DNA of 64,000 nucleotides from an uncultured Candidatus Saccharibacteria bacterium (GCA_964654205.1 CAZZHR010000001.1:1953-65952); one strand, 5' to 3'. Shown: positions 7,471 to 59,898, counted from the first letter of the stretch. The notes: a model not told the origin generated them from the sequence alone. Program-made: numbers and translations.

Positions 7471-7599
7471 AGATGTGCAGAACGCCTAAAGCTCACGTAT
7501 TATACGCGCGTAGTTTTTCCTGGGAAGCGCCGCTATCATTCCAGACCATGTGTACAACCTGTGTACAACCTGTGCATTAGTGTTCGTCCGGCGCCACTG

Positions 7600-7628
7600 T
7601 TGTCATCCGTCGTTTTTTAGCGTATAGT
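7600..7628 (+). promoter_or_regulatory. sigma-70-type promoter of rpmH (-35 TTGTCA, 17-nt spacer, -10 TATAGT); predicted transcription start only 1-3 nt before the ATG
   Basis: TTGTCA at 7600-7605 and TATAGT at 7623-7628; the ATG is at 7637, implying a leaderless or near-leaderless mRNA. Confidence 0.45.
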
Positions 7629-7636
7629 CCTGACCT

Positions 7637-7777
7637 ATGAGACGAACCTATCAGCCGAAGAAGCGAAAGCGAGCGAAGACGCACGGTTTCCGTTCGCGCA
7701 CGACGACCTCGAAGGGGCGAAAAGTGCTTCGCCGTCGTCGCCAGAAGGGCCGCAAGCGCCTCTCTGCGTCGGTATAA
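7637..7777 (+). CDS. rpmH: 50S ribosomal protein L34
   Basis: Translates to [46 protein letters not shown] (46 aa), a near-consensus L34. Absent from the ORF track because it is under 60 aa. Confidence 0.95.
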
Positions 7778-7784
7778 TTTTTGG

Positions 7785-8111
7785 ATGCCCAAGAAAAATC
7801 GCCTTACGGGCGCTGAGATACAGAGGATACGCGCCCCCCGCCGGGTCTCTTCCGCGCTCTTTTCCCTTTCGTTTTCGTCGTCGAGTGGTGATGGTGCGAG
7901 ATTTGCCTGCGTGGTATCCAAGAAGGTCTCCGGGAAGGCGGTGGTTCGCAACGCGATAAAGAGGAGGTGTCGGGAGATTATCCGGACACATATCGCACGG
8001 CTTCCCGCCGGGACGTACGTCCTGTATGCGAAGAAGGGCGCAGTCACTGCTGCGTATAAAGAGTGCGAGGCTGACATCCTAAAGCTCCTGAGCGGCCTCC
8101 GGGGCGCGTAA
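7785..8111 (+). CDS. rnpA: RNase P protein component
   Basis: 108 aa basic protein directly after rpmH; central motif KKVSGKAVVRNAIKRRCRE matches RnpA; conserved rpmH-rnpA-yidC synteny. Confidence 0.85.
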   Translation: MPKKNRLTGAEIQRIRAPRRVSSALFSLSFSSSSGDGARFACVVSKKVSGKAVVRNAIKRRCREIIRTHIARLPAGTYVLYAKKGAVTAAYKECEADILKLLSGLRGA

Positions 8112-8284
8112 AGCAAGGCGGCGGTACGGCCCGGTAGGACAATTGGGGATTGCCTTGATGCAGACGAGCTGACGTTGTAAAGAATAATGCGCAAGTGGTG
8201 CGGTATACGTGGTATGACGAGCCGACGGCGGCATCTATGCCAAATTGTACTGACCGGGTACAATACGCCGCAACCTACCCGGCT

Positions 8285-9025
8285 ATGATCAGCTCCATCT
8301 TCCATGCTCTCGTCTACGACCCCATATACAATGCGCTCGTCTACTTCGTCGACATCGTGCCGGGACACGATGTCGGAATTGCCGTCATTATCGTGACGAT
8401 AATCGTGCGCATCATCCTCTACCCTCTTTCTAAGAAGGCCATCAAGGCGCAGATGGATATGAAGCGCGTTGCGCCGGAGATAGAAGAGATAAAGAAAAAG
8501 TTCAAGGACAAGCCCGAAGAACAGGGGCGCGCCATATTCGCACTCTACCGGGAGCGCGGCGTGAGTCCCTTTGCCGGGCTCTTCCTGCTCCTCGTCCAGC
8601 TCCCGATACTGCTCGGACTCTATTTCGTGTTCGCACAGGGAGGTCTTCCCAGCATCAACACGGATATTCTCTACGCATTTGTGCCAACGCCGGGGGCGGT
8701 CGACATGGAATTCCTCGGCCTCATCGATATGGGCGGCAAGAGCCTCATCCTCGCGCTCCTCGCGGGCGTCACACAATTCGTATACACACGGCTCTCGATG
8801 GGGCCACGCGGTTCTGCGGTAGCGGCCGAGGCGTCTTTCTCAGCGGAAATGGCGCGCACGTTTGACCTCCAGGCGCGGTATGCGCTCCCCCTTATCGTTG
8901 CGGGCATCGCGTACTTCATCGCCGCTGCCGCTCCTCTCTACTGGCTCACAAGCAATCTTTTCATGATAGGTCAGGAGCTTCTCTCGGGACGTCGGTTCAA
9001 CCCCAAGACCGAAAAGGACTCATAG
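8285..9025 (+). CDS. yidC: membrane protein insertase YidC/Oxa1 family (short form)
   Basis: IAVIIVTIIVRIILYPLSKK...MKRVAPEIEEIKKKFKDKPEE... aligns with the YidC core (60KD_IMP). Start placed at the ATG (MISSIF...) that matches the mature start of Gram-positive YidC; the GTG at 8195 adds a non-hydrophobic 30 aa. Confidence 0.8.
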   Translation: MISSIFHALVYDPIYNALVYFVDIVPGHDVGIAVIIVTIIVRIILYPLSKKAIKAQMDMKRVAPEIEEIKKKFKDKPEEQGRAIFALYRERGVSPFAGLFLLLVQLPILLGLYFVFAQGGLPSINTDILYAFVPTPGAVDMEFLGLIDMGGKSLILALLAGVTQFVYTRLSMGPRGSAVAAEASFSAEMARTFDLQARYALPLIVAGIAYFIAAAAPLYWLTSNLFMIGQELLSGRRFNPKTEKDS

Positions 9026-9238: not shown

Positions 9239-9709
9239 ATGGATTACGCGCCCGAAGTCGAAAAAATCCTCAAGGAGATGCTCCTGACGCTCGGCGTGTC
9301 GTATTCGAAAGTCACGAGGACTGATGTTGCAGGACAGGCTATTTTCACGATAGAGACCGACGACGCGCGCAAGCTCATTGGGATGCACGGAGACACTATC
9401 CATGCGATAGACATGCTCGTAAAGAAGATTCTCGAGAAGCGCATGCCCGTCGCGGAGGGAGCCGCAGCCCCGATGTTTTTGATCGATGTCAACGATTACC
9501 GTGCCAAGCAGATACGCGACCTCCAGACGAAGGCGCTCATGATGGCTGAGCGCGCACGCTCATTTCAATACGATGTAGAGCTCTCCCCCATGAGTGCGTA
9601 CGAGCGCCTCATCGTGCACACAACGCTGCAGGATGCACCAAATGTGAAGACCGAATCGCAGGGCGAAGGCAGGAATCGCCGCGTGGTCATCAAGTACAGC
9701 GCTGATTAG
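9239..9709 (+). CDS. jag: Jag/KhpB-like RNA-binding protein (KH and R3H domains)
   Basis: IGMHGDTIHAID (KH) and a C-terminal R3H region; classic position after yidC. Start moved to the internal ATG (MDYAPEVEKIL...). Confidence 0.75.
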   Translation: MDYAPEVEKILKEMLLTLGVSYSKVTRTDVAGQAIFTIETDDARKLIGMHGDTIHAIDMLVKKILEKRMPVAEGAAAPMFLIDVNDYRAKQIRDLQTKALMMAERARSFQYDVELSPMSAYERLIVHTTLQDAPNVKTESQGEGRNRRVVIKYSAD

Positions 9710-9823: not shown

Positions 9824-10342
9824 TCATGAAATTGGGATAGCAGTACTGTTGGGCTGTGTAGTACGGGTCGGGTGCCTGGGCTGCTGGAGGGGAGATAGGT
9901 TGGTCGCAGCTGGACGTGCGGGGTTCACGACCTGCACCTGGTTGGCATTGCGGAACACGTCGAGGTTCAAGAGCTGCGGGTTGATTTGACGGAGAATAAG
10001 GTATATCGAAAGCAGGAGGAGGAGGCCGAGAATAACATCGCCTATGACTTGCTTTGCGTGGGATTTTTGGTGGAAGGCGTCGGTCGTCATGTACAGGTAG
10101 CCCGCAAAGGCAAGACGAAGCACGGCAAGTATTGCGCCGACCGCAATCATCGCGACGAAAACTTTATTGAAGAAGTCTGCGAGGGAGGTGGAGCCATACA
10201 GATTTCCGAGGCGCGAGCCCCCTGGCGCAGGAGAGAGCGGCACGAAAGTTTGGGCGCCTGCGATGTCTGCGCCGACAATGAAACATATGCCGGCGACGGT
10301 GGCCGCGAGAAGAAGGTGCGATATGAACTGGGCTCTTCGCAT
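9824..10342 (-). CDS. small secreted two-helix membrane protein, candidate T4SS pilin (VirB2/TrbC-like)
   Basis: Signal peptide (…IAGAQT) then two long hydrophobic helices separated by a short loop; the last gene of the T4SS-like operon. Confidence 0.45.
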   Translation of the reverse strand: MRRAQFISHLLLAATVAGICFIVGADIAGAQTFVPLSPAPGGSRLGNLYGSTSLADFFNKVFVAMIAVGAILAVLRLAFAGYLYMTTDAFHQKSHAKQVIGDVILGLLLLLSIYLILRQINPQLLNLDVFRNANQVQVVNPARPAATNLSPLQQPRHPTRTTQPNSTAIPIS

Positions 10343-10343
10343 A

Positions 10344-11585
10344 TCAATTTTCTAATCGCAACATCCACAGCGTCTTGTCGATTTTGTTTACGAATGCGAT
10401 GTGCGTACCGGAGCTATCGATGCGAGGCTCCTCCACGTCGAGTGCGGTGCTGAACTCCGGCGTAAAAATTTGCTCGGCAGAGTTCGCAGAAACGTCAATG
10501 CGCCACCATGCGTCAGCGGTGTGTGCCGAACCGTCGTACCAGTTGCGGATGAAATCTCGTGCTGGCTGCGTCTGCGGCACCGCGCAGTAGAGAATGAGTC
10601 GTGAATCCGGCGCCCACACACACTTTTCCGCAAGTGTACGGACAGGAAGTGCTATGTCGGAGCTTCCCGAGCTCGTGCGGGCAAAGAGTGCGAGCGCACC
10701 TCCCGAGGAACTGCTGAATGCGATTGCGCTCGAATTGGAGCGCGGTAAGAGCATGAGGCCGGGAATATTGCCAAGGATGCGTTCGAGAGTCCCGGAAGAT
10801 GTAACGCGAAACGCGTGTCCGGCGATGTCGTCGGAAGCCTTCTGTATCACGTACCTCGTGCCATCGGGGAGAACAAGTGCGTGCCAATCGGAAAGCGCTG
10901 AGGCGAGAATCCGTCGCTGCCCCGTACCGAGCCAGTTGGAGACGATGCCTGCAGTGCCCCCGTTCTCGCGAGCCAAAAAGAAGAGCTCTTTCGTGCCCGG
11001 ATGTGCCGCAATCGACACGATGCCGCTCGGCAAGAAGACGCCCTCGAGCTTATGTGGTGTGTCCCCCGCCGCCGGCGACGTGCTTGTCCCAATTGTAGCG
11101 GCGAACGTTGTCACACTACCCGTTTCGTCGAGCGCCCGCAGCACGACAGAGCCGTCGTATGCAAAATGAGCCTCGAGCACCTTGGGTACGAGCGTGTTCG
11201 TGAGCCGCGCGACCTTTGCTTCTCGGGGGTCGGCAGTGAGAATGTTGCCCGATGCGCGCTCGGCGAAGAACACAACGGGGCTGGTCGAGGCGAAGCCGTG
11301 CCCCCCGACGGGCGTGCGCGTTACTCGCCACAGCTGCGGGGCGGCCGCCGAGCCCTCCGGCTCATCGCTCAGTATGTTGCCGACGATGCCACTCACGAGA
11401 TTCGATAAGCCGCTCCCTACACTGCTCCCAAACGACTCGCTTGCGCCAAAGCCGCGCGCCGAGTCCTGCGATTCAGTCGAGGATATCTGCTGATCAACAA
11501 AGAGGTACCAGCCAGCGAGGCCGCCGAGCACCGTCACGATGATGGCTGCGACAGCGAACCGTACCCATGACAAGTTGATTTTCAT
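10344..11585 (-). CDS. membrane-anchored beta-propeller-like protein (TolB/PD40-like), T4SS-associated
   Basis: N-terminal TM helix, then repeated beta-strand-rich segments ending ...THIAFVNKIDKTLWMLRLEN. Stop is 1 nt from the next gene's start. Confidence 0.45.
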   Translation of the reverse strand: MKINLSWVRFAVAAIIVTVLGGLAGWYLFVDQQISSTESQDSARGFGASESFGSSVGSGLSNLVSGIVGNILSDEPEGSAAAPQLWRVTRTPVGGHGFASTSPVVFFAERASGNILTADPREAKVARLTNTLVPKVLEAHFAYDGSVVLRALDETGSVTTFAATIGTSTSPAAGDTPHKLEGVFLPSGIVSIAAHPGTKELFFLARENGGTAGIVSNWLGTGQRRILASALSDWHALVLPDGTRYVIQKASDDIAGHAFRVTSSGTLERILGNIPGLMLLPRSNSSAIAFSSSSGGALALFARTSSGSSDIALPVRTLAEKCVWAPDSRLILYCAVPQTQPARDFIRNWYDGSAHTADAWWRIDVSANSAEQIFTPEFSTALDVEEPRIDSSGTHIAFVNKIDKTLWMLRLEN

Positions 11586-11589
11586 ACGA

Positions 11590-12612
11590 TTATTGTCGTG
11601 GAGCGAACGGGTTTATCCCCTCGATGGAGCCGCCAGTCTGAGAAAATGTTATCTGCCAGGCGGCGTTGGTGCCGAAGAAATAGTTGGTCACGTGCGTCAC
11701 CTCGAGGTCGATGGTCGCGATACCTGTCGAACCCGCGGCGTTGATTGTTATTTGTGAAGGTTTTTTCGCGTCTGACACTATTGAGTTTCGGTCGACGCGC
11801 CATGCGTATTGAAGTCGCGGGTCATTTTCTGTAGTAACGGGGGCAAAGTACGGTATGGCCAGAAAGGTCATCTCGGTTTCGGGCGTGAATGCTGTCGCGC
11901 TGAACGCCCTGTGGTAGAGCGGGCCAAAGAGCGGGTGATTCTCATACAGGCGCAGGCTCGTGTCCGGAGCCGGAATGCGCGCACTTCCCCGAGCGGATAT
12001 CTCCCCGTCTGCGGTTCGCGCGTCGACAGAGAATACTTCTTCGCCGAAAAGCGTCGTGCCGTCTACGACCAGCGTGGAGCGCCCTTTCCCGGAGAGCGAG
12101 CCGAGCACGGTGTTGCCCTTTCGCCACGTGTAGATGAGGTCCTTCTCTGCTATCGGCGCGCCGCCCCTGACGAACGTGGGGTGCGCGACGAGTGTGATGT
12201 TTGCTCCGGGTGATGGCAGAGTTCTGCCTTTGTAGAGAGCGGGTGCGAATCCTTCAGCCTCCCAGAGGAGGTCGAGCGATGCGGGGGTGATGGAGAGAAA
12301 TGCGAGCGCTTCTTCGTCACTCGTTACCACTGAGGCCGAGACATCGGTCGTCTCTCCTGCAGCCTTCACCTGTATCGATACGCTCGTCACTCCCTCTCCT
12401 TCAGTAAGGAGTTCGCCGTCGACTCGCCACGACACGAGCGACTGTGAGAGGTCGAATATTGGGCTCTGGAGCGTGAGCCGCACCGTGCTGTTCGGGACGG
12501 GCTGTGCCGGACTCATCGCTATTGTCACAGCACTCGACGCGCTTGGAAAGTCGGATTGGGCGTACGCAGCCTGCGCAAAAAGTAGCACCATGAGCACTAT
12601 GAGTACCCTCAT
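11590..12612 (-). CDS. secreted hypothetical protein (signal peptide), T4SS-associated
   Basis: MRVLIVLMVLLFAQAAYAQS signal peptide; 4-bp overlap with the VirB4 gene upstream. Confidence 0.5.
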   Translation of the reverse strand: MRVLIVLMVLLFAQAAYAQSDFPSASSAVTIAMSPAQPVPNSTVRLTLQSPIFDLSQSLVSWRVDGELLTEGEGVTSVSIQVKAAGETTDVSASVVTSDEEALAFLSITPASLDLLWEAEGFAPALYKGRTLPSPGANITLVAHPTFVRGGAPIAEKDLIYTWRKGNTVLGSLSGKGRSTLVVDGTTLFGEEVFSVDARTADGEISARGSARIPAPDTSLRLYENHPLFGPLYHRAFSATAFTPETEMTFLAIPYFAPVTTENDPRLQYAWRVDRNSIVSDAKKPSQITINAAGSTGIATIDLEVTHVTNYFFGTNAAWQITFSQTGGSIEGINPFAPRQ

Positions 12613-14588
12613 ACTTCCTTGAGATCCGAACTGGTCAGTGATTTACCGACGGGCGCTGTGTCGGCGCCTGGTGCGGCGGGTACGGGTACGCTCGCGGCGA
12701 CCGGTGGCGGTGCCGTTTGTGATACGGGGCGGATGGCTGCAGCAGCAGCGGCGCCCGCGCTCGACGGCGTGTCGACGGCTTCGAGTTCCTGCTTCGCTTT
12801 CTTTATAGCGAGGATTTGCGAAGGGTCTGACGTGATGATCTGGTCCTCTGTATACGATGCGATGACCTTGATGGCGACGTGCTTGAGCCCGGCGAAAAAT
12901 ATTCCCTCTCCGACATCGCTCTCGAGGAGGAGGTACTTCTCTTCGTCGGAGAGCTTGAATGTCTGCTGCACGAGGTCGACCGATGTTGGCGACTGGCGCA
13001 AGAGGAGCTGGATAGAAGAGTTCGTTATCATCGGGATGCCGTACGGTGAGTTGAGGAAGTCGGAGACGTCCTGCGTGATTGTGGAAATGCCCAGGTAGTA
13101 TTTTCGACCACGCTTCGCAATGGAAAATAGGAAGGATGCGGTGTCTTCACTTCGCATCATCCACCACGCTTCGTCGATGACGAGAAGGCGCTTTCGAAGT
13201 TCTTTGCGTACCGTGTTCCATATGTGGTGCGTGATGATGTACATCGCCACCGGTTTGAGGTCGTCCTCCATGTCGCGCACGGAGAAGACGACGAGCTTCT
13301 TGTTCATGTCTACGTTGGTCGGTCTGTTCATGAATCCCGACCAGGTCCCCTTCGTGTATTTCGAGAGCCGCTGCACGAGGCTCTCGCTCCCCTCCATGCC
13401 GGAGAGGACGAGTTCGAAGTCGGAGAGGAGCGGCGGCTCGACGGCCGCAAAATTCGCCTCAGGGGTAATGTCTTTGAGCGCGTATGTTTCTGTTATCGCC
13501 TTGTCGATAATCGCGTCTTCCTCGGGGGTGAGCCCTCCGAGCATGATACGGAAGAGCCCGACGAGCGTGATGATGTTGTTGCGGAGCACGTCCGAAGGAT
13601 TCTCGTCCTCGCGCGGTATCGCGAGGTCAAATGGATTGATGTGGTGCTCAGAGGAGAGCGAGATGTTGAAGTAGCGGCCGCCCACCGTCTCTGCGAGGTA
13701 TTCGTATTCGCGTTCCGGATCGATGACGATGACTTCCGTGTCGAACATGAGAGAGCGCAGTATTTCGAGCTTCGTCGTGTAGGACTTACCCGCGCCCGAT
13801 TTTGCAAACGTGACACTGTTGTAGTTTTCGAGCGAGAAGCGGTCGAAGAGGATGAGCGAGGAGTTGTGCCGGTTTATCCCGTAGAGGATGCCGCGGTCGG
13901 ATGTGAGGTCGAAAGATATAAACGGGAAGATTGACGAGAGCGGTGCGGAATTGAGCTTGGTATGCACGTCGAGCTCGTCTGTCGCGAGCGGCAGTACCGA
14001 GCGAAAGCCCTGTTCCTGTTGGAAGAGTGCGGGCCGTATGTACACGAGCCTCGCCTCGAGAATCGAGCGTACCTCGCTCTCGACCTTGTCGATCTCCTCC
14101 CTCGTGTTGCCGTAGATGGTGAGGTAGAGGCCTACATCGAAGATGCGCTCCTGCGCTTGCTGGAGGCTGTCGCGCAACTGTTCGAGGTCGGCGTAGGCAG
14201 TGTCGAGCATCGGATCTCGCACCATACCCTTCTCCTCACGGGTCGATATTTGGCTCTGAACCTCCGCGACTTTCTTCTGGAACTTGCGGAGCATTTCATT
14301 GGTATCCATCGGGTGCACGAAAATGGAGATGTCGAGCACCTTGTCCATGTTGATGATGGGTGCGAACCAGCCGGTCGTGAGGAAGCGCGGGTAGGAGATG
14401 ACGAAGAACGTGCGCGCTATTTTCTCGCCGAGGTCGAGTTCGCGCGAATTCACCTTGAGCGCGTGCGGCGCGATGACGTCCTGCAGGTCGAGGACGCCGC
14501 TCTGGTAAATCTCACGCGGCAGGACGGGCAGAATGCCCGGCGAGTCCTCCTTTTTCTTGCCAAACGGAAGTAAATCGGTGAGCGCCAT
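12609..14588 (-). CDS. virB4: VirB4/TraE/PrgJ-family type IV secretion ATPase
   Basis: Walker A FAKSGAGKSYTTK, Walker B LLVIDEAWWMM; the N-terminal region is typical of the CagE/TrbE/VirB4 family. Start set at the internal ATG (MALTDLLPFG...), which abuts the upstream gene's stop; the ORF-track 58-aa extension is a GTG artefact. Confidence 0.8.
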   Translation of the reverse strand: MALTDLLPFGKKKEDSPGILPVLPREIYQSGVLDLQDVIAPHALKVNSRELDLGEKIARTFFVISYPRFLTTGWFAPIINMDKVLDISIFVHPMDTNEMLRKFQKKVAEVQSQISTREEKGMVRDPMLDTAYADLEQLRDSLQQAQERIFDVGLYLTIYGNTREEIDKVESEVRSILEARLVYIRPALFQQEQGFRSVLPLATDELDVHTKLNSAPLSSIFPFISFDLTSDRGILYGINRHNSSLILFDRFSLENYNSVTFAKSGAGKSYTTKLEILRSLMFDTEVIVIDPEREYEYLAETVGGRYFNISLSSEHHINPFDLAIPREDENPSDVLRNNIITLVGLFRIMLGGLTPEEDAIIDKAITETYALKDITPEANFAAVEPPLLSDFELVLSGMEGSESLVQRLSKYTKGTWSGFMNRPTNVDMNKKLVVFSVRDMEDDLKPVAMYIITHHIWNTVRKELRKRLLVIDEAWWMMRSEDTASFLFSIAKRGRKYYLGISTITQDVSDFLNSPYGIPMITNSSIQLLLRQSPTSVDLVQQTFKLSDEEKYLLLESDVGEGIFFAGLKHVAIKVIASYTEDQIITSDPSQILAIKKAKQELEAVDTPSSAGAAAAAAIRPVSQTAPPPVAASVPVPAAPGADTAPVGKSLTSSDLKEV

Positions 14589-14589
14589 A

Positions 14590-15252
14590 CTATTCTTGTG
14601 CGGGCACGGGCATTGGCTTTCCGTCTTCTCCCGGATTGAACATCTTATAGAGCAGCTCAATCGCTTCTTCAGTACCGAGCTGGACGGTGCGAACACCTGT
14701 GCGGACGAGCCCCTGCTGTACGATGGATATGCGCTGCTCGAGCTGGGAGACCTGTTCCTCAAAAGTCCTGTTCTCCGCGGCAGGATCTTTTTTGCTGCGG
14801 CCGAACGGCAGGAGCGAGGCCGCCCCCTTCTTGCCTGCGAGCACGGCGGGGTCGTAGGGCACCACCACGAAGAAGTTCTTGGTCATGATGTTCGCTGCCT
14901 CTGTGAAGCTCCTGATGAATTCGATGTACTCGCGGATCTGGATGCGCATGAGGTCGTCGAGCTGCTGCTTGTACTGTGCCTCGAGCGTCGCGACGTAGGG
15001 GCGGATGTCGAGCATGCGCGACTGCACGAAGATCTGCACGGAAAAATCGAGCGAGTTGAGAAAGTTCTGGAACTGCACGATGAACGCTGTTTGCTCGTCC
15101 TCGCTCTTGAGTGCGAAGTTGATAGAGGACGCGAGGAGTACGGCGCGCAAGCCACCGTTTTTCAGTGCGACGACACCGTCGCGCACCTCGGAGATGGGCA
15201 CGAAGTCCTGTGTCGAACGGGAGACGGAGCGTGTGTTGGCGGTACCGGGCAT
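14590..15252 (-). CDS. T4SS-associated protein (220 aa), possible VirB4-N-domain/PrgJ-partner-like
   Basis: ATG start; translationally coupled to virB4; shares an LLPFG(K/R)xKK(D/E) motif with the VirB4 N-terminus. Confidence 0.5.
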   Translation of the reverse strand: MPGTANTRSVSRSTQDFVPISEVRDGVVALKNGGLRAVLLASSINFALKSEDEQTAFIVQFQNFLNSLDFSVQIFVQSRMLDIRPYVATLEAQYKQQLDDLMRIQIREYIEFIRSFTEAANIMTKNFFVVVPYDPAVLAGKKGAASLLPFGRSKKDPAAENRTFEEQVSQLEQRISIVQQGLVRTGVRTVQLGTEEAIELLYKMFNPGEDGKPMPVPAQE

Positions 15253-15255
15253 AGT

Positions 15256-15771
15256 CTATAGGCGAGGTGCGCTTCTGCGCAGCTGAGTGACGATATCTTC
15301 GGGTACGCGAAGGCCCTGCACGGGGTCTATGTCGCTGCGGTCTCGATCGTCGGTGGTGCCAGCTGCGATGCGCTCGTTGATGTCGAGGCTCCAGGCAAGT
15401 TCGTGAAGCTTACTATCGGAGAGCTTTGGCACGTAGACGCTCGCGCTCCCGTGGCTCGGTTCCGCAGCCTTTTTCACCTGAGGTTTCTTTGAGCGCTCGT
15501 TGTTCCAGAGGTAGAGCTTGGGATGGAGCGCGAAATAGAAGGCATTCTCGAGCGCGAGGAGGAACGGCCGGCCGTTGACCTGCATGAAGGCGAGTGCTGC
15601 CGCGAGCCCGAGTACGCCCACGATGAGGGGTGCGGCAAGAAAAAGCGGCAGTATGCGCCAGGTCACGTACGCGAGACCGAGGCCGCCCGCCACGAAGACG
15701 AATTGCTTAAAGGTCAGAGGCCCTACGATCTTGTCCTCTACCTCGATGAATTGAGGTACTTGGAACTGCAT
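15256..15771 (-). CDS. PrgI/VirB3-like small membrane protein
   Basis: N-terminus QFQVPQFIEVEDKIVGPLTFKQFVFVAGGLGLAYVTW... matches the PrgI-family signature (EDKIIGPLTxRQF) followed by two TM helices. ATG at 15771 preferred over the TTG at 15777. Confidence 0.6.
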   Translation of the reverse strand: MQFQVPQFIEVEDKIVGPLTFKQFVFVAGGLGLAYVTWRILPLFLAAPLIVGVLGLAAALAFMQVNGRPFLLALENAFYFALHPKLYLWNNERSKKPQVKKAAEPSHGSASVYVPKLSDSKLHELAWSLDINERIAAGTTDDRDRSDIDPVQGLRVPEDIVTQLRRSAPRL

Positions 15772-15831
15772 GCTCAATTATTATAACAGCCCGTACCGCG
15801 CGTGCGGGCCACTTTTTCGTACAACGGGGCG

Positions 15832-16413
15832 CTAAATGAGCTGCTCGCGGTATGGATCGCCCTCTATTGCCTTGCGCTCGTGACTCGCGACGCTTTTTGC
15901 ATACGTCGGCGGCAGCTGCGCACGCTCCACTTTCTGTGTGAGTGGCGGAGCGGGTGGGGTCGCGGGTGCAATCGTGGGTGCAGGCGACGCCGGTGCTTGG
16001 TCTGGTGCCGCTGGAGTTTGCGAATTCGCCAGTACTTGCGTGCGCATCTGTTCGACTCCCGTTTCCTTTGTGGCGGCAGCATCGGGATGTTCCAAAAGAC
16101 GTTCGAGTTCTTTTCGGATTGGCTCGAATATCGTTTCCGATATCTGAGACGCAAGAATGGTTGCTACATCACCACTTACACCCACTTCCTTTTGAATGTT
16201 TGCTGCAAGATCTTCAGACCGAAGAATTCCCAAGAGGGTCATCTGGACCTCATTTTCAAGCGTTTCCCACTGATCTATGTGCAAGTTCTGTTTTTCAGCG
16301 AGCTCTCTCATGTGCTTCTGTACGTCGGCGGAAAGAATCGCGTTCCGGACGACCTTCGGCAGTCTTTCGAATCGTTCCTGTATCAATTGTTTAAACTCAG
16401 TGTTCTCGTCCAT
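15832..16413 (-). CDS. hypothetical protein with Pro/Ala-rich C-terminus, T4SS operon
   Basis: ATG start; acidic helical N-half and PAAPDQAPASPAPTIAPATPPAPP linker. Confidence 0.5.
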   Translation of the reverse strand: MDENTEFKQLIQERFERLPKVVRNAILSADVQKHMRELAEKQNLHIDQWETLENEVQMTLLGILRSEDLAANIQKEVGVSGDVATILASQISETIFEPIRKELERLLEHPDAAATKETGVEQMRTQVLANSQTPAAPDQAPASPAPTIAPATPPAPPLTQKVERAQLPPTYAKSVASHERKAIEGDPYREQLI

Positions 16414-16416
16414 ACC

Positions 16417-18840
16417 TTAATGATGTGCCCCACTGCCCCCGTGGTCGTCGTGGGAATCAGCTTTTTGCGTCTTTGTCCCTGTTTCCGACTTCTTTTGCTG
16501 TCCGTGCTGTGCCCCATGATCCTCTTTGTGATCATCGCCGCCCGCAATGTGCTTCAAGTGCTCCATCGCTTCCTTCACGTCATGTTGCTTTTTCCGTTCC
16601 CCCGTTTGCTTGCCCGCGAGCTTTGCAAGTCTGTCGTTGTCCGCACTACTGATACCCGCTGCCTTTGCAATAAGGTTGGTCAACCGGTCGTTAGCCATTT
16701 CAGATGCTCTCTGCGATAGCCTATCACTGGCCTTTTTGTCCAGAGAGTCACTCCATTTGCCCGCTTGTTTCGCGACCTCCGTGAGTGCGGATGTGACCTG
16801 AGCATGCTGTGCTTTTGCTTCTGTAAGCGCTTTATTTGCTTCTTTGATCTTATTGTCCTGTTCTCGAAGCACGTCCTTATGCTCTGATCTCGCGCGCTCA
16901 ATTTGCGCATTTAAGTCACGCGCTCTCGCCTGCTGTTCTTGATCCGAAGGGTTTCTCCCGAGTGAATGCAATGCTTCAGTGTGTTGCTTTTGTAGATCTA
17001 TAATCTTTTCCCCCACGCCCCGAACTGCCTCAACCTGTTCCTTCGTCGCCTTGGCTACACCGCGCGTAGCTGCTTCGACTGCCTCCTCGGACGTTTTGTG
17101 AGCTTTGTCCAAATCTGGATTCGCGGTTTTAATTTCGTCGAGCACTTCTTTCTTCATTTTGTCGCGTTCGGCATCCGATATTGCTTCGTCCTCAGCTCGC
17201 TTTGCGAACTTATCAGCACGTGCTTTCAACGTACCCTCGTAACCTTTCAATGCCTTTCCAGTGAGAGCATCCAACTTCATTCCGGCAGTGTTGGCCACAA
17301 CGCTCCCAAACGGTGAACGCATAGCATTCATGTCGCTCTTTGCCACTCCTTTCAGTGCACGCGCGCCGAAACCAAGTAGCGCTTTCGAGACACGACCCCT
17401 ACCCTCTTGATTGGCTGCGAGCCGTGCTGCGTCGCTCGCGGCGAGACTTGCCCGCCCGAAAGTGTGCCTGCCGGCAAAAGCGGCGACGCGGGCGCCTGCC
17501 GCGAGGCCGAGCGCAGGCACCATAGCAGCGAAGTTGAATCCGCTGATTCCGGATGAGAACGAGCTCGCTATCTTGAACGACGCAAAGAGCATACCGAGGA
17601 GGATGACGTAGTTGAAAAGCGCGCCCACACCTGCGTTGCCGTCGCTCGAAGTCATGAGACCGCCGAGTGTGTCGTTCTGTGTCGCCATCTCTTGGGCAAG
17701 CAAAAGCGTGATCCACAGCAGAATCATGAGAAGCGGTCCGAATATGGCGACGTTGATGAGCGACTTCCACCATGTCGTCCACCCATACTGACTATCGGCA
17801 GCCTTTGGTATGAGGTATGTCGCGAATGCTATGGAAGACGTAATCATGAGAAATACGAGGAGCACAGCGCGGCTGACGATGAGGAGGCACCCGTAGAGCA
17901 TCACTATCGCCACGCCGAGGAGAAATGTGGCACTTAATACGCCGTGTAGGAGGGCGAGTATGCCATCTTGTTGTTTCTCTGCATTCGCACGAATTTTTGT
18001 GTACACATCGCCGATGCCCGTGACGCCCATCGTGCGTATGAACTGACCCGCGATACCGTCTTGCTGCTGTGTTGTCGCAGCCGATGCCCCGGCGCTCACG
18101 AGCGTGTTGATAGGTCTAGGAACGACCGAGCCGCCTGCCGCTGTGTAGAACTGGTATGAGACGAAGTTGGAGGCGTCGATGATGAGCTTCGTGAAGAGGA
18201 GACTGAAGTTCATCAAGACCGCGATGACGAGGACGCGGGCTATCATTTTCTTCTGCCCGAAACTCTCGAGGCCGAGAATGATGGATATTGCGATAAAGAC
18301 GAAGAGGCCGATGATGAGGATGTTGGAGAGGTCGCGGAACACCGTCCATGCGGTATCTATCGCACCGCGTACGTCCGTAGTCAGAAAGCCATTTTGCTGG
18401 TCGCCGAACGCGACAATGGTGTAGTACACGAGCCAATTAAAGAGAAGCCCGACGACTTCGAGCAATTTTGCGGACAGGGTGATCAATATTGTCGCTATGA
18501 CCGCGCCAACGACTCGTCCTACGCAGACGATAGGGCTGAAGAACATGTCACCCCAGCTTTCACAAGTTACTGGACCGCGGTTTCCAATCGTACTGCTATC
18601 GCTGGCACTTGAACCCACGGGTCTGCAATTTCCGGTAGCACTTGGGTTCGTTGGATCTGCCGCGGGCTCGAAAGTTGTTGTTCCCGGGCCGTGCGCCTGA
18701 TCGCAGTCAGCTTGGCTGTATTGGGCGTGTGCGACTGACGGCGTCCACGATACCGCCGCTGCGAAACCTCCTAGAACTACAGGCGCACTTAATTCCGTAA
18801 GCAGAATGATGGCCGCGATAGCTTTTCTGAGTCGAGCCAT
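16417..18840 (-). CDS. VirB6/TrbL-like polytopic membrane protein with ~330 aa coiled-coil, His-rich C-terminal tail
   Basis: Signal peptide MARLRKAIAAIILL..., Cys-containing N-terminal domain, about 7 TM helices, then a long K/E/A-rich coiled coil ending HDDHGGSGAHH. ORF-track start at 19059 rejected because it overlaps the upstream gene. Confidence 0.55.
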   Translation of the reverse strand: MARLRKAIAAIILLTELSAPVVLGGFAAAVSWTPSVAHAQYSQADCDQAHGPGTTTFEPAADPTNPSATGNCRPVGSSASDSSTIGNRGPVTCESWGDMFFSPIVCVGRVVGAVIATILITLSAKLLEVVGLLFNWLVYYTIVAFGDQQNGFLTTDVRGAIDTAWTVFRDLSNILIIGLFVFIAISIILGLESFGQKKMIARVLVIAVLMNFSLLFTKLIIDASNFVSYQFYTAAGGSVVPRPINTLVSAGASAATTQQQDGIAGQFIRTMGVTGIGDVYTKIRANAEKQQDGILALLHGVLSATFLLGVAIVMLYGCLLIVSRAVLLVFLMITSSIAFATYLIPKAADSQYGWTTWWKSLINVAIFGPLLMILLWITLLLAQEMATQNDTLGGLMTSSDGNAGVGALFNYVILLGMLFASFKIASSFSSGISGFNFAAMVPALGLAAGARVAAFAGRHTFGRASLAASDAARLAANQEGRGRVSKALLGFGARALKGVAKSDMNAMRSPFGSVVANTAGMKLDALTGKALKGYEGTLKARADKFAKRAEDEAISDAERDKMKKEVLDEIKTANPDLDKAHKTSEEAVEAATRGVAKATKEQVEAVRGVGEKIIDLQKQHTEALHSLGRNPSDQEQQARARDLNAQIERARSEHKDVLREQDNKIKEANKALTEAKAQHAQVTSALTEVAKQAGKWSDSLDKKASDRLSQRASEMANDRLTNLIAKAAGISSADNDRLAKLAGKQTGERKKQHDVKEAMEHLKHIAGGDDHKEDHGAQHGQQKKSETGTKTQKADSHDDHGGSGAHH

Positions 18841-18841
18841 A

Positions 18842-20503
18842 CTATTGTCGCCACTGCTGCTTCCAGGTATCGAGCGTCGCCTGGTTGTTAACGTTGCACC
18901 AGCCGCTCCCCTCCTTCCAGGCCTGTTCAGTATTCGTGCGGAAGGTCTCCTGATTCGCCTGCACGTCGTCTTTGACTCTCTGGTCAGCCTGGAGTTGCGA
19001 CTCGTTGTTGCGGATGAGGCCGCTGGATACCAGCTCGTCGAGCTGGCGCAGCGCCACACGCTGTGCTTCGAGTGATGCGGTGTTGGTGATGCCTGCGATG
19101 AGTCTGTCCACGCGCTCTATAGCTTGGTTTGCTCGCTGTAGGGATATATCGGTCGAACTTGCCTGCGCGCCGATAGAGCTATTGCGGACGGCCTGCGTGG
19201 AGAACGCAGTGGATGTCGCTACTTTTAGCTTGCCTGCCGAAGGGCAGTTGGTGTTGTCGCCCTCGCCCGTGCAAGTGACCACTTCGGTGCATGTCTTGTC
19301 GGCGGCGAGCGGTCCTGCACACACCTTCTGGATGATTGCCTCCCAGCACGCGGCTTCCTTGCCGCGCAGGTCTGTGATGGTCGCGGCAAGGATACCGAGT
19401 ATCGCCTCGGAGAGTTGCTTGTACCCAAGCTCGACGCGACGCGCACCCGAGAGTATTTGGAGCGCTGCGTTGGTCGCTGCGTCGCGGAGTCCCGCGTTGG
19501 CCTCGCGCACCACTTGGTCGAGGTACGAAGGCTGGCTTCCCGTTTGCTGCATAAGACCCTGGATACCCCTGCTGTCGCCTATGACCTGAGAAATCATTCC
19601 GGAGAAGAGTGAGCCGACCATCTGGTCGATGTCGTTGGAATTTTCGAGCTGTCTGTAGCCTGTCTGTAGAAGCTGGGTGATGTTGTCGCAGACGATGGAG
19701 CCTGGGGTTACCGTGACGCGGTTGCCGTACTCATCGATGCGCTCCACCGGGTGGCAGCCCTGTCCCATCTGCGCGCGCAAGAGCAAGTTGTCGGCAGAAC
19801 TGTTCGCAACACCATTGAGTCTCTCGCTCGCGAGAGTGTACGCGAGTATCGGGTCACAGCCCGGCGTGCCGATGGCATTGAGCGCTGCCCACACCGATCG
19901 GTCGGGTTTTCCACTATGCACGGTCGTGATATTGCCCGCGTAGCCGCAGTCGAGAATGGAGTTTGGCTTGTTGCGAGCGGAAATGTAGCTCTGGACGGTC
20001 GCGCGCGCCACGGCGCTGCGAAGCTCCGGCTTCACTGCATCGAAGAAACCGCGGTTGACCTGTACTCCCACCACTCGGTCTCGCTCGGCTTGTTTTTCTG
20101 CCTCGATATCCTGGGGGAAGAACGGATTTCCATCTCTCCCCGTCAGGAATGTTGCGAGACCCTGCTTTGCAAGACCCGCGCTTGCTGCTTCGCGCTGCCT
20201 GTTCACCACGCCGCGGAGCACGCACTCCTTGTACACGAGGTAACCCGTGTTGAGCGTGACCGCCGCGTCGTTGACCGGCACGTACACGCCGCCGACCGCC
20301 GAGAGCGCGCCGACACTCATTGAGTACGAGCCCTGGAGCGAACACCCGAAGACGCCGTTGCGCTTGAACGCGTACGTGTCCGAGAAGTCGACTTCGCCCG
20401 TACCCGTAACTTCCACATGGCCGGGCTCGTGGTTTGCCGAAGTGAGGTTCGGAAGCAGCAGCGTTGTCGAAAGAAAGAGCGCTATGAAAAATCTGTTCCT
20501 CAT
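18842..20503 (-). CDS. secreted hypothetical protein (553 aa, Cys-containing)
   Basis: ATG start; signal peptide MRNRFFIALFLSTTLLLPNLTSA; multiple Cys pairs; stop abuts the VirB6-like start. Confidence 0.55.
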   Translation of the reverse strand: MRNRFFIALFLSTTLLLPNLTSANHEPGHVEVTGTGEVDFSDTYAFKRNGVFGCSLQGSYSMSVGALSAVGGVYVPVNDAAVTLNTGYLVYKECVLRGVVNRQREAASAGLAKQGLATFLTGRDGNPFFPQDIEAEKQAERDRVVGVQVNRGFFDAVKPELRSAVARATVQSYISARNKPNSILDCGYAGNITTVHSGKPDRSVWAALNAIGTPGCDPILAYTLASERLNGVANSSADNLLLRAQMGQGCHPVERIDEYGNRVTVTPGSIVCDNITQLLQTGYRQLENSNDIDQMVGSLFSGMISQVIGDSRGIQGLMQQTGSQPSYLDQVVREANAGLRDAATNAALQILSGARRVELGYKQLSEAILGILAATITDLRGKEAACWEAIIQKVCAGPLAADKTCTEVVTCTGEGDNTNCPSAGKLKVATSTAFSTQAVRNSSIGAQASSTDISLQRANQAIERVDRLIAGITNTASLEAQRVALRQLDELVSSGLIRNNESQLQADQRVKDDVQANQETFRTNTEQAWKEGSGWCNVNNQATLDTWKQQWRQ

Positions 20504-21327
20504 GGTGTTTTTTGGCTGTAGTAGTTGCCAAGTGCATCGAAAGCGTAAAACATTTTTTGCTCCGCGGTGTTGTAGCTGCGCAGAAGCGCGACGGTCGCGA
20601 ATGCGTCGAGATCTTTCCTTGCCATGGCGTCGAGCGTCGCGTCGAATTGCGAAAGCGCGTTGAGTACATCGAGGTGGTAGTTGAGCGCGTCGCGCGGTAT
20701 GACCACGGAGGACGCGTTCGAGAGCGCCTTCTCATAGTTGAGCGCGACCTGTGTGAGTGTATCCAGGTGGGCATCGTCGCTCGTCTCGATGTAGCGAGCG
20801 AATATATCGAGCTCGGACTCGGTGTTCTCGAGAAGCGGCGCAAGCGCGTCTCGCATGTCGCCGCGGTATTCGAGCATGCGTTCGCGCGAGATGTCGGTGT
20901 CTGTGCGCACGTCGGTCGACGTGTACATCTTGTATGAAATAACAGCCTTGACGTTGCGCGCAATGTCCTCGGCCACGGCGCTCCCTGATTCGGGGGAGTA
21001 CGCGCCGCCCTCGACAAGTCCCGCGTATTGCCCCACGAGCTGCGCGACTACGACGGGTCCTATCATCGCCACGGGGTCGTTTTCAGAATTGCTGCTCGTC
21101 TCCGAGGTCGTCGCGAGTCCGAGCAAAACGAGTTCTTGCTGCCACGAAGCGTCGGTACCCAGAATCGTCTGGTCGGTGTGCGCTTCAGCCTCCACGGCAG
21201 CCGGCCGCACGACGTCTGTGACAAGGAAACGCAATTGGAAGAGAAGCGCACCGATAAGGAGTACGACAGAGAGCGCTGCCGTTACGGTGATGCGAGATTG
21301 AAAGATGAGATGGAATACACGCACGAT
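20500..21327 (-). CDS. N-terminally membrane-anchored hypothetical protein
   Basis: The likely GTG start gives VFHLIFQSRITVTAALSVVLLIGALLFQL as a signal-anchor; the upstream 93 codons of the ORF-track model are R/S-rich and unlikely to be coding. Confidence 0.4.
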   Translation of the reverse strand: MVRVFHLIFQSRITVTAALSVVLLIGALLFQLRFLVTDVVRPAAVEAEAHTDQTILGTDASWQQELVLLGLATTSETSSNSENDPVAMIGPVVVAQLVGQYAGLVEGGAYSPESGSAVAEDIARNVKAVISYKMYTSTDVRTDTDISRERMLEYRGDMRDALAPLLENTESELDIFARYIETSDDAHLDTLTQVALNYEKALSNASSVVIPRDALNYHLDVLNALSQFDATLDAMARKDLDAFATVALLRSYNTAEQKMFYAFDALGNYYSQKTP

Positions 21328-21493
21328 ACAAGTATACCCCGTTGGATACGTGTCGTTCTGTGTTTTACCCACAAAACTAAGGATATTTTGTCGAAACGAA
21401 CTCGTGCGGCGCAGTGCGGGAGGATTTCGAGTGAAATACTCCGCTGTGGCGAACGCTCTGGAGCGGAATTTCCACCGAATTGAGCGGTATTTT

Positions 21494-22363
21494 CTACAAA
21501 CCACCTCCGCCCGAGAAGGTAAATATGCTTCCCGGATCGCCCGTCGAAAATTTGACCCCCGCGAGTGAGAGGGTGGTGGCGAGATCATTGAAATGGCCAA
21601 CCAGATCGTCGGCCTCCGCGTTGTAAGACGTAATCGCCGCTAAAAATGCTTCATCGCCACTGGCATCGGGGACCTTCTCGAGCGCTCTGCCGACGGCGAG
21701 GTAGCTCTCGGCGAGGGCTGTATGTGTGGCGGCAACGCTTGTCGGCACCTCTTCCATGCCGAGAAGGCTCTCCCCTACGGTGCGCAGACCCATCGCGACA
21801 AGTTTTACAGCCTGCCGCTTTTGTGGGTTCTGCCGGTCTTCCGCTTGGTCTCGAAGCGCGACAGGCGCATTTCTGTTGGAGTCCTCGTACGTTTGGACGT
21901 ACGATGCCGCATCATTGCCGTAGTTGAAAAGTGCCTGCTGCTCGGGCGTGCGCGAGACGCCCGCCGTGCTTGTGGCGATAAGCCCGCGCGGTATGAACGA
22001 ATAGGCCAGGCTCGAGTCAGCAGTGATGGTCGTGCTCTTCCCCCCAGCGGGTTCAGCGAGCAAGCTGAGCAGTGATTGAAAATCGAATGCTTCGCTCGAC
22101 TCGGCATCTGTCGAGGTGGTTTGCGACGGCGGAATATAAATCGGCGCTCCGTCGGTCGGGCTGCGTGCGTCTTGCATCGACTGAGAGATATTTTGCGGCG
22201 CGTATGACGTGGGGTTCAGAAGCGGAGCACCTGCGCCGCCCCACACTGAAAGCGGGCCAGGAGTCACGCTCGTGCGGCTCTCCACGACTATCGCGAAAAT
22301 CACGAGCAGGAGTCCGGCTGCCGCGCTCGCTGCGGCGTATGGGTGCATGACAAACCACGACAT
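21494..22363 (-). CDS. N-terminally membrane-anchored hypothetical protein (first gene of the T4SS-like operon)
   Basis: ATG at 22363; TM helix AAASAAAGLLLVIFAIVV then a hydrophilic extracellular domain. Confidence 0.45.
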   Translation of the reverse strand: MSWFVMHPYAAASAAAGLLLVIFAIVVESRTSVTPGPLSVWGGAGAPLLNPTSYAPQNISQSMQDARSPTDGAPIYIPPSQTTSTDAESSEAFDFQSLLSLLAEPAGGKSTTITADSSLAYSFIPRGLIATSTAGVSRTPEQQALFNYGNDAASYVQTYEDSNRNAPVALRDQAEDRQNPQKRQAVKLVAMGLRTVGESLLGMEEVPTSVAATHTALAESYLAVGRALEKVPDASGDEAFLAAITSYNAEADDLVGHFNDLATTLSLAGVKFSTGDPGSIFTFSGGGGL

Positions 22364-22411
22364 GCGCACATGATATCACTGGCGTGCGGAATGCGGTGCT
22401 ACAATTTGCGC

Positions 22412-22732
22412 ATGTTTGCGCGAGCTCTTGTCGCATCCGTGCTTCTCGCATCGCTTGCTGTGCCATCGGTCGCTGCCGCGTTTCCTTTCGGCGGACAAGC
22501 GTTTATCGTGCGTCCCTGTTACAACAATGCAATCTACGTCGGTCTCGGACCCCCGCGCGGCGGCCCGTTCGTATGGACTCCAGGGACACGCACGTACTCG
22601 TTTGGGCCGCCGACACATGCGGGACAATGGCTGCTCGGTCTCGCTGGCATCCCCTACTACTGCATTGTTTCTATCCAACCAGTCATCGTCTGGTCGGGCA
22701 CATACATCAACATGATGGGCTCGAGTAGATAG
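22412..22732 (+). CDS. small secreted hypothetical protein (~106 aa)
   Basis: Internal ATG gives the signal peptide MFARALVASVLLASLAVPSVAAA; followed by a hairpin terminator-like element at 22734-22758. Confidence 0.4.
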   Translation: MFARALVASVLLASLAVPSVAAAFPFGGQAFIVRPCYNNAIYVGLGPPRGGPFVWTPGTRTYSFGPPTHAGQWLLGLAGIPYYCIVSIQPVIVWSGTYINMMGSSR

Positions 22733-22910
22733 AAAAGTGTGCGGCGTACACTTTTCTCCTACTCGAGAGCCGGAACCCTGCGTAAGCAGGGTGAGGCCGG
22801 GCCGGCGCACTTCATATTTTGGAGCACGAAGTGCGAACAAAATATGTTAGTGACGGTGGCGCTCGCGTTAAGAAATTGTGTGTGGCCGAGTAGATAGAAT
22901 TGCGCGGTGT

Positions 22911-23675
22911 TCAAGTCAATGCCTTCGCCACTTCCTTCCACTGCTCGAGCGACATGTCCTCCGCGCGCGCTTTTTCGTGTACGCCTGCGGTCGTGAGTGC
23001 GCGCAGAGACTCGGCTTTCCCGAAGATAATCGTAAGGTTGTTCGCAACAAACTTCCTTTTGGAAGCAAAGCCTGCTTTCACGACGTGAAAGAAGTGCGAT
23101 TCATCTACATCACTGAAGAAGTCCTTAGAGATATTCTCCACCGCAAGAATGGCCGAGTCCACGCTCGGCGGAGGCGAGAAATGTTTCTTTGGAACTTTTT
23201 CGACAAGGCGCGGTGTCCCGTATGCGCGCACCGAAATCGAGAGAATGCTCCCCTTTTTACTTACGATGCGCTGGGCGACCTCCTTTTGAATGAGTAGCGC
23301 CATGGCGCGCGGTTGCGGCTCTGCAGTGAGAAACTTCCGGATAATTTCACCGGTGATGTAGTACGGAATGTTGGCCGCCAGTACATATGTTGTAAGTCCG
23401 AGACTTTCCGGCGTTACGTCGCGCACATCTGCCTCGACGATGCGCAAGCGCCCACTGGCAATTTCCTCGGCAAAACTATCGCCCAACAGTCGTACGAGCT
23501 CAGTATCTTTCTCTATCGCAATGACTTTTCCGAGTGCGAGGAGTTCCTTCGTGAGCGCTCCCTTGCCAGGACCAATTTCGAGTATGGTCTCTCCATCGTG
23601 TGGCCCCGCGGCGTGGGCGAGAGCTCGCGCTGCCCACGCGTGGACGAGGAAATGCTGCCCGAGTCGTTCTCCCAT
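22911..23675 (-). CDS. rsmA: 16S rRNA (adenine1518/1519-N6)-dimethyltransferase KsgA/RsmA
   Basis: LGQHFLVHAWAARALAHAAG...ILEIGPGKGALT SAM-binding motif; 254 aa. Confidence 0.85.
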   Translation of the reverse strand: MGERLGQHFLVHAWAARALAHAAGPHDGETILEIGPGKGALTKELLALGKVIAIEKDTELVRLLGDSFAEEIASGRLRIVEADVRDVTPESLGLTTYVLAANIPYYITGEIIRKFLTAEPQPRAMALLIQKEVAQRIVSKKGSILSISVRAYGTPRLVEKVPKKHFSPPPSVDSAILAVENISKDFFSDVDESHFFHVVKAGFASKRKFVANNLTIIFGKAESLRALTTAGVHEKARAEDMSLEQWKEVAKALT

Positions 23676-55710: not shown

Positions 55711-55891
55711 AGCGTCCTCCTTTTGCTGAATGTCGATGATCAACCGGCCTACCTTATGCAATATTTCTCTTAAAGAGTCAATGAACGGTCCTGCGAGTGT
55801 CATTTACTTTTCATCAGATTGTGCTATAATTGAAGGAGTGGTTGTTGCGTGTAGCGTTTGCGTCCCACAGAAACATCCAACAAAGGGACTC

Positions 55892-59463: not shown

Positions 59464-59898
59464 ATAGTAGGACAGTTTACAGTGAAGAGTTGGCAGTAGC
59501 AATCGGGAAGCGTTAACTGCTGCGCAGTGGGCATTTGCCTCGGGAGAGCCAGCTATGAAAAAATCAGAGTTCCTGCATCAGATCGTGCTCGCGGGCGACA
59601 AGCTACTTCAGCAGTGCGGACCAAAGCCGCGCAATCTTGATTTGAATGACGACCAAGTCCTGGCGGCCGCCGTCGACGTTGACTCGCGTGCGGCCGTTGC
59701 AGAGGGCGCGCCCATGCTCGTTCTGGCACTCTATGCGGCCGCCTTTGAGCGTGACAATCCGCTTCGCGTCTTCGCAACCGCAGAAGCTGCATGGGAAGAA
59801 TCCCTGGCAGCACGACCTGGCGGAGGGTGAGTTGGTCTGGAGAAGAAAAACAGCGGGGGCTGCGCACGCAGCCCCCGCTGAAAGTTTTCTGGGGACGC

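Follow-up and report, generated by a model that had tools for sequence, protein, structure and literature searches.

The 64-kb window analysed here (the whole stretch CAZZHR010000001.1:1953-65952, with positions counted from its first letter) contains, at 9824-22363, a run of eleven co-directional minus-strand genes, g1 to g11, whose products include the recognisable core of a type IV secretion system (T4SS). Our own gene calls and an independent gene call on the identical public contig agree exactly on this run. Eight of its ten junctions span between -4 and +4 bp, and two are wider: 121 bp separate g1 from g2, and 60 bp separate g5 from g6. Genes on the opposite strand border the run on both sides: a small gene for a secreted protein lies upstream in divergent orientation (22391-22732, plus strand), and jag lies downstream in convergent orientation (9239-9709, plus strand). 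A first reading of the DNA, made without database searches (the sequence-only reading), had already proposed the eleven-gene run, which both sets of calls bear out, together with junctions of mostly 1-4 bp or overlapping, a description that fits all but the two wider gaps. A single-operon structure for g1-g11 is plausible.

The ATPase and the membrane-embedded core

The ATPase gene is g8 (12609-14588; 659 aa), which corresponds to the C-terminal two thirds of a VirB4 protein. Its product scores 365.6 bits against the NCBIfam model NF045971 (conju_CD1110; cut-off 325, profile positions 182-733) and 85 bits against PF19044, and contains both a Walker A motif (AKSGAGKS, residues 262-269, encoded at 13782-13805) and a Walker B motif (LLVIDEAW, residues 468-475, encoded at 13164-13187). 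The best VirB4 models for this protein are those of the Gram-positive CD1110 family and of the Mycoplasma integrative and conjugative element family. To place it among its relatives we scanned one genome per GTDB species, which returned at least 569 matching loci, and kept the best 80 by g8 similarity. The product of g8, which has a 100% identical counterpart on a 187-kb NCBI contig, shares 75-98% identity with the VirB4 proteins of these 80 best of at least 569 matching Paceibacteria loci, as opposed to at most 36% with any plasmid VirB4; the nearest plasmid proteins, at 29-36%, come from the Actinobacteria and Firmicutes (Streptomyces, Embleya, Bacillus and Clostridium).

Immediately upstream, g7 (14590-15252; 220 aa) encodes a protein that matches the N-terminal parts of VirB4 models (CD1110 positions 2-117; VirB4_plasma positions 98-233, E 3e-10) as well as the TrsD/TraD family NF041427 (E 2.5e-6), and in which the independent annotation of the identical contig places a TraC-like PF26593 domain. 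Because g7 matches both the N-terminal VirB4 model segments and the TrsD/TraD family, VirB4 is split here into two co-linear genes, with g7 supplying a TrsD-like, separate N-terminal domain and g8 the remainder. The g7 counterpart is likewise a separate open reading frame (ORF), of 209-227 aa, in 77 related loci.

Three further genes complete the putative core. The first, g6 (15256-15771; 171 aa), encodes a membrane protein of the PrgI/VirB3 family, with 39 bits against PF12666 (PrgI; cut-off 27) and two overlapping hydrophobic windows at residues 33-61, and is present in 77 of the 80 loci. The largest gene of the run, g4 (16417-18840; 807 aa), encodes a polytopic protein in which hydropathy predicts a signal or anchor segment, about seven more hydrophobic segments and, at the C-terminus, a hydrophilic coiled-coil region of about 340 aa, the latter with PDB matches of coiled-coil type only. 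The protein itself has no direct family match in Pfam or NCBIfam, and 7 of its 45 positional orthologues match PF04610 (TrbL/VirB6; best E 6.5e-7). These features are consistent with the 'extended VirB6' type described in PMC12857230. Finally, g11 (9824-10342; 172 aa) encodes a VirB2-like candidate pilin with a signal peptide and two hydrophobic helices. It scores 22.3 bits against the T4SS_pilin family PF18895, under the cut-off of 26.6, and its orthologues match that family in 33 of 36 cases (best E 7.4e-11) and TrbC/VirB2 in six.

Most of the core had been anticipated by the sequence-only reading. Its VirB4-family ATPase with Walker motifs and its PrgI/VirB3-like protein are confirmed by the matches above; its two-helix pilin candidate with a signal peptide is supported through the orthologues of g11, and its VirB6-like polytopic protein gains support from the topology and the orthologues, although g4 lacks a direct match of its own. 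The same reading had left the 220-aa product of g7 without a recognisable family, and this does not stand.

Accessory proteins and candidate associated genes

Between g4 and g6 lies g5 (15832-16413; 193 aa), which encodes a cytoplasmic protein of an uncharacterised family. Its alignment reveals a six-helix domain at the N-terminus, a disordered linker rich in Pro and Ala, and a C-terminal DPYRE that is invariant. AlphaFold2 models residues 11-100 with a predicted local distance difference test score (pLDDT) of about 90, and we found neither a Foldseek match in the PDB with E < 1 nor a Pfam family for the protein. The motif DPY[RH]E occurs at a C-terminus exactly once per locus in 65 of the 80 related loci; the wider family comprises 6,001 representative clusters at E values up to 1e-3, some with two or three tandem domains, and the motif ends 114 of its top 148 members. 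That such a protein stands in for the missing coupling protein, as an adaptor for docking or a receptor for substrates whose DPYRE tail would tether a cargo or partner to a VirB4/TrsD/VirB6 platform, is a speculation that we consider doubtful.

The upstream end of the run is occupied by the paralogues g1 (21494-22363; 289 aa) and g2 (20500-21372; 290 aa), both predicted to be membrane-anchored. In g1 the anchor corresponds to a hydrophobic segment at residues 4-33 and is followed by a C-terminal, apparently helical domain of about 140 aa, which is common to both proteins (hhalign of the two profiles, 98.4% probability, E 5e-15). The length of g2 agrees with the independent gene call, and its start is ambiguous between a GTG at 21372 and a GTG at 21324. 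No Pfam or NCBIfam model matches g1, which tblastn detects in 18 related loci. We considered the pair as VirB8 analogues and provisionally rejected this idea: to judge from its sequence, the domain they conserve is probably helical, in contrast to the NTF2-like alpha+beta fold of VirB8. The neighbouring g3 (18842-20503; 553 aa) encodes a secreted protein with 12 cysteines, whose 390 homologues are all annotated as hypothetical and all derive from Kaiserbacteria or Paceibacteria sources. Its AlphaFold2 model (pLDDT 76.8) is an elongated helical bundle for which we found no specific structural match, and the protein has no known family.

At the downstream end, g9 (11590-12612; 340 aa) encodes a secreted protein with a signal peptide and predicted immunoglobulin (Ig)-like or PKD-like beta-sandwich domains: its profile matches the T4 Hoc structure 3shs (E 2e-4), and its orthologues match BiPBP_C (8 of 45), Ig_3 (5 of 45) and PKD. 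The next gene, g10 (10344-11585; 413 aa), specifies an N-terminally anchored protein that is probably a TolB-like beta-propeller, its profile matching TolB structures with E values of 0.003-0.01 and two of 45 orthologues matching PD40.

These results modify the earlier picture of the accessory genes in several respects. The anchored beta-propeller proposed for g10 agrees with its anchor segment and with the TolB and PD40 signals, although the latter are weak. Of five secreted or anchored proteins of unknown function, four hold (g1, g2, g3 and g9), while g5 and g7 are cytoplasmic, with neither a signal peptide nor a membrane segment; and of the three products said to lack a family, those of g3 and g5 still do, in contrast to the TrsD-like g7. 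The suggestion that the co-encoded secreted proteins are cargo is not supported: because they carry Sec-type signal peptides or anchors and their position is conserved across the class, they fit structural parts of the machine better. Among the subunits, the anchored helical pair g1/g2, the disulfide-rich elongated helical g3 and the DPYRE-tailed g5 may be undescribed in any study.

Two neighbouring genes may extend the system. The small gene divergent from g1 (22391-22732) encodes a secreted protein of 106-113 aa with a signal peptide and two cysteines; it is conserved beside g1, with 51-87% identity, in at least 17 loci, and in one relative (L010) it runs in the same direction as the operon, so that, judging from adjacency only, it may be a twelfth T4SS component. 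An overlapping minus-strand ORF at 22376-22840, considered as a twelfth upstream gene, proved spurious, the conserved frame being on the plus strand. Farther away, 3.5 kb upstream of the operon and beyond uvrD, lies a gene for a LysM and M23 peptidoglycan endopeptidase (25882-26922, plus strand; PF01551, PF01476 and NCBIfam endopeptidase models). VirB1-like proteins with M23 or LysM domains have been reported, with virB4-associated VirB1 homologues found mainly in Paceibacteria (PMC12102498). By analogy the hydrolase could be a VirB1 counterpart, and equally it could be a cell-division hydrolase.

The intergenic regions were also inspected. An inverted repeat at 22360-22415 (20-nt arms, 80% complementary, 16-nt spacer), whose arms include the g1 start codon and that of the small divergent gene, was rejected as an operator or origin of transfer (oriT), being absent in the closest relative (L001) and not common to the other related loci compared. 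Each of the two larger gaps holds, on the minus strand and very near a start codon, a -10-like box, namely a TATAAT box 8 nt before the g6 ATG (in the g5/g6 gap, 15772-15831) and a TATACT box before the GTG at 21324 (in the gap region 21325-21493); internal promoters or leaderless transcripts are possible at these sites. Within 20 nt upstream of the candidate starts of g1, g2, g4, g6 and g8, nothing resembling a Shine-Dalgarno motif stood out, and scans for Rfam families and tRNAs found nothing within or beside the operon.

Chromosomal setting and conservation

The operon is embedded in a cluster of housekeeping genes close to the chromosomal origin (oriC). On its upstream side lie ksgA (22911-23675) and uvrD (23685-25592); on its downstream side jag is followed by yidC (8237-9025, plus strand), rnpA (7785-8111, plus strand), dnaA (6118-7467, minus strand) and dnaN (4711-5808). 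The window has a G+C content of about 58%. Its source organism is a Candidatus Kaiserbacteria (class Paceibacteria) within the candidate phyla radiation (CPR/Patescibacteria), and the many g8 homologues at 88-100% identity are, where their source is given, labelled Kaiserbacteria, Paceibacterota or Patescibacteria. A synteny comparison, which the sequence-only reading had suggested, revealed that the order uvrD-ksgA-[operon]-jag-...-dnaA-dnaN recurs among the 80 Paceibacteria loci, which span records labelled Kaiserbacteria, Nomurabacteria, Taylorbacteria, Campbellbacteria, Adlerbacteria and Wolfebacteria. Genes g4-g11 are detectable in 56-80 of these loci, and g1-g3 in the closer ones only.

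The ATPase is under unusually strong constraint for a secretion protein of its kind. Across the 55 genomes with all markers, the median identity to the window is 78% for g8, 63% for g7, 56% for DnaA and 40% for DnaN, and g8 is more conserved than DnaA in 52 of the 55; selecting the loci by g8 similarity inflates the absolute g8 identity, while the comparison within each genome still stands. Because the locus is embedded in an oriC-proximal housekeeping cluster whose order recurs among 80 species loci, a recent mobile element is excluded. The recurrent gene order, together with a VirB4 that is more conserved than DnaA in nearly all of the genomes compared, places the locus in the core genome and argues that it is a vertically inherited machine.

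The remainder of the window is in keeping with this view. Among its 41 ORFs scanned against Pfam, none encodes a relaxase, a VirD4/TraG coupling protein or an element integrase, and no conserved inverted repeat (oriT) was found at the locus. The claim that the window lacks VirD4/TraG, relaxase, oriT repeat and integrase therefore stands for the first three, although the fourth needs qualification, since a full-length tyrosine recombinase of XerC/XerD type is present 16 kb from the operon (38852-39766, plus strand). With 251 bits against the XerD model and 244 bits against the XerC model, both under the equivalog cut-offs, it is apparently a housekeeping gene rather than the integrase of an element. 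The conclusion that the locus is unlikely to be a classical conjugative element agrees with the missing relaxase and coupling protein and with the fixed oriC-proximal position.

Several other features of the window deserve mention. A gene for a PilB/GspE-type ATPase (61843-63573, plus strand; T2SSE 402 bits, with an MshEN domain) gives the window a type IV pilus system alongside the T4SS. In this genome antisense ORFs of considerable length occur commonly and can mislead: a 399-aa minus-strand ORF at 7577-8776, which appeared by tblastn to be conserved in 40 loci, is the antisense shadow of rnpA and yidC. Sizeable ORFs without a Pfam or NCBIfam family, which are candidate genes or antisense ORFs, lie at 36025-38121 (minus strand, 698 aa), 59791-61227 (plus strand, 478 aa), 54610-55803 (minus strand, 397 aa), 30252-31532 (minus strand, 426 aa) and 43446-44441 (minus strand, 331 aa).

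Known relatives and possible functions of the machine

The locus is very probably a chromosomal, vertically inherited T4SS of the Patescibacteria type in its Paceibacteria arrangement, a minimised descendant of the monoderm (MPF-FATA) conjugation machine that is no longer conjugative. Its closest counterparts are the Patescibacteria-clade systems surveyed by Quinonero-Coronel et al. 2025 (PMC12102498), whose VirB4 clade is nested in MPF-FATA and in which TrsD is the commonest virB4 companion, followed by PrgI/VirB3, VirB6 and VirB2-like pilins. The window locus shares with them VirB4 and a separate TrsD-like protein, PrgI/VirB3 and the PF18895 pilin, with g4 as the candidate VirB6, and, like the Paceibacteria arrangement reported in that study, it is chromosomal, has no relaxase nearby and adjoins dnaA, dnaN, ksgA and rnpA. 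Nothing essential differs; the other operon genes, left unassigned there, are those described here as g1/g2, g3, g5, g9 and g10. T4SSs of this relaxase-less, pilus-encoding, oriC-proximal kind were already described in 2023-2025 (PMC10633639, PMC12102498), and the locus is one more member. The sequence-only interpretation of a monoderm-style T4SS in a CPR bacterium is supported by the family matches, and was likewise already present in these two papers.

A second close relative is the T4SS of Candidatus Southlakia epibionticum ML1 (SEML1_0006-0019; Wang et al. 2023, PMC10633639), which is also of monoderm type, also lies near the chromosome start and also lacks a recognisable relaxase or coupling protein in the locus. 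Its VirB4, TrsD, PrgI, VirB6 and VirB2-like pilins are essential there, and epibiotic growth requires the T4SS genes, the pilin array among them, but not comEC (PMC10633639, PMC12857230). The arrangement differs: Saccharimonadia carry an array of six divergent pilins, with peptidase and lysozyme genes downstream of virB4, whereas the window locus has a single pilin and other accessory genes.

More distant systems share individual features. In the Trs system of the Staphylococcus plasmids pGO1/pSK41 (MPF-FATA; TrsC, TrsD, TrsE), the VirB4 N-terminal domain is likewise a separate small protein (TrsD) beside the ATPase, with a VirB3-like gene upstream; Trs is, however, plasmid-borne, accompanied by a relaxase, a type IV coupling protein (T4CP) and an oriT, and devoid of a VirB2 pilin, and the pGO1 subclass has no recognisable VirB6 (PMC12102498), in contrast to the window locus with its VirB6-like g4. 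The CTn2/CD1110-family and pCF10 Prg/Pcf systems of Firmicutes resemble it in that CD1110 is the best-scoring VirB4 family, and in their PrgI-family VirB3 and polytopic VirB6 analogue; they differ in having an unsplit VirB4, a VirB8-like PrgL, a VirB1-like PrgK, adhesins, a T4CP and a relaxase, in lacking a pilin and in residing on mobile elements. Bordetella Ptl, Brucella VirB and Helicobacter ComB are also non-conjugative and without a dedicated coupling protein, and ComB imports DNA, but these are diderm systems with VirB7/9/10 outer-membrane cores that, VirB4 aside, show no closer sequence relation than the monoderm systems.

In the assembly that we infer, PrgI/VirB3 (g6) and the TrsD-like domain (g7) would hold the VirB4 ATPase (g8) at the membrane, where the extended VirB6 (g4) would form the channel and the VirB2-like pilin (g11) would be polymerised into a pilus or conduit. 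The extracellular or cell-wall part would be built from the Sec-exported or anchored g1/g2, the Cys-rich helical g3, the Ig-like g9 and the TolB-like g10, and g5, in the cytoplasm, may use the DPYRE peptide at its C-terminus for docking. The most likely task of such a machine is the contact-dependent exchange of macromolecules with the host cell that carries the bacterium, through import of host material or export of protein.

Both directions have been put forward. Wang et al. 2023 noted that a coupling protein and a relaxase were missing and suggested that the system exports proteins or has another role (PMC10633639). An effector translocator, delivering proteins into the host bacterium so as to manipulate or permeabilise it, is a tentative possibility, somewhat unlikely on present evidence. 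Protein-secreting T4SSs without a T4CP do exist (PMC12857230, PMC12102498), among them Ptl and Brucella VirB, with the bacteria-killing T4SS of Xanthomonas as a further comparison, and several secreted proteins are encoded in the operon itself; these, however, bear Sec signals or anchors and keep their positions across loci, as parts of the machine would. Pfam and NCBIfam revealed no toxin or enzyme domain in the operon, and no effector-immunity pair was noticed in its vicinity.

The other hypothesis now current is that host material is imported (PMC11665869). Its narrower form, a DNA or nucleotide import machine comparable to ComB of Helicobacter pylori or Ced of Crenarchaeota that would feed a cell unable to make nucleotides, is a sub-case of the exchange machine proposed above and, in our estimation, unlikely. 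It is compatible with a window that holds neither relaxase nor T4CP and with an S. epibionticum in which the T4SS is essential and comEC dispensable, and it has been proposed in PMC11665869 and PMC12102498. A short stretch of g8 matches the CedB model with 34.6 bits, yet over only about 70 residues and far under the cut-off of 700, while no other Ced- or ComB-specific subunit was recognised, and no DNA-binding or nuclease domain was recognised by Pfam or NCBIfam in any product of the operon. Between DNA uptake and protein export the sequence does not decide.

An organelle limited to a VirB2-type pilus that adheres to the host and transports no substrate seems improbable. The operon does contain a VirB2-like pilin, an uncommon component among monoderm systems (PMC12857230), VirB4 is known to drive the biogenesis of pili (PMC12102498), and the Ig-like and propeller surface proteins could be adhesins; against this, the genome also has the PilB-like type IV pilus ATPase, type IV pili already give adhesion and motility in relatives, and both the extreme conservation of VirB4 and the fact that a channel protein of extended VirB6-like type has been kept point to transport. 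Still-functional conjugation or chromosome transfer, relying on a coupling protein and a so far unrecognised relaxase from other parts of the genome, is highly improbable: the machine descends from conjugative MPF-FATA systems and VirD4-like homologues occur in 2,918 of 3,035 Patescibacteria genomes, mostly far from virB4, but relaxases occur in 103 of the 3,035 (about 3%) and the S. epibionticum t4cp homologue is non-essential in contrast to its T4SS genes (PMC12102498), while the locus keeps one fixed chromosomal position in the retrieved species genomes with no integrase, repeats or element borders, and its VirB4 evolves more slowly than DnaA, unlike the genes of mobile elements.

Some observations weigh against a non-conjugative exchange machine encoded by a single operon. 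Essentiality has been shown only in a Saccharibacterium with a differently arranged locus and not in any Paceibacteria, and a VirD4-like protein may be encoded elsewhere in the genome, in which case DNA transfer would be possible. The VirB6 and pilin assignments rest on positional orthologues, g4 and g11 themselves falling below the family cut-offs, and no VirB8-like or VirB1-like subunit was identified inside the operon. As for its expression as one unit, the internal gaps of 121 and 60 bp interrupt the run, and consensus scans for sigma-70 promoters and terminators returned sites no more frequently than in shuffled sequence.

A T4SS is among the few large machines that the ultra-small, host-dependent CPR bacteria have kept. 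The locus described here introduces no new kind of system; it is a clean and complete example of the Paceibacteria arrangement and can serve as a reference for the accessory genes that always travel with VirB4, namely g4, g5, g9, g10 and g11, among which the conserved cytoplasmic, DPYRE-tailed g5 protein is a candidate for interaction studies.

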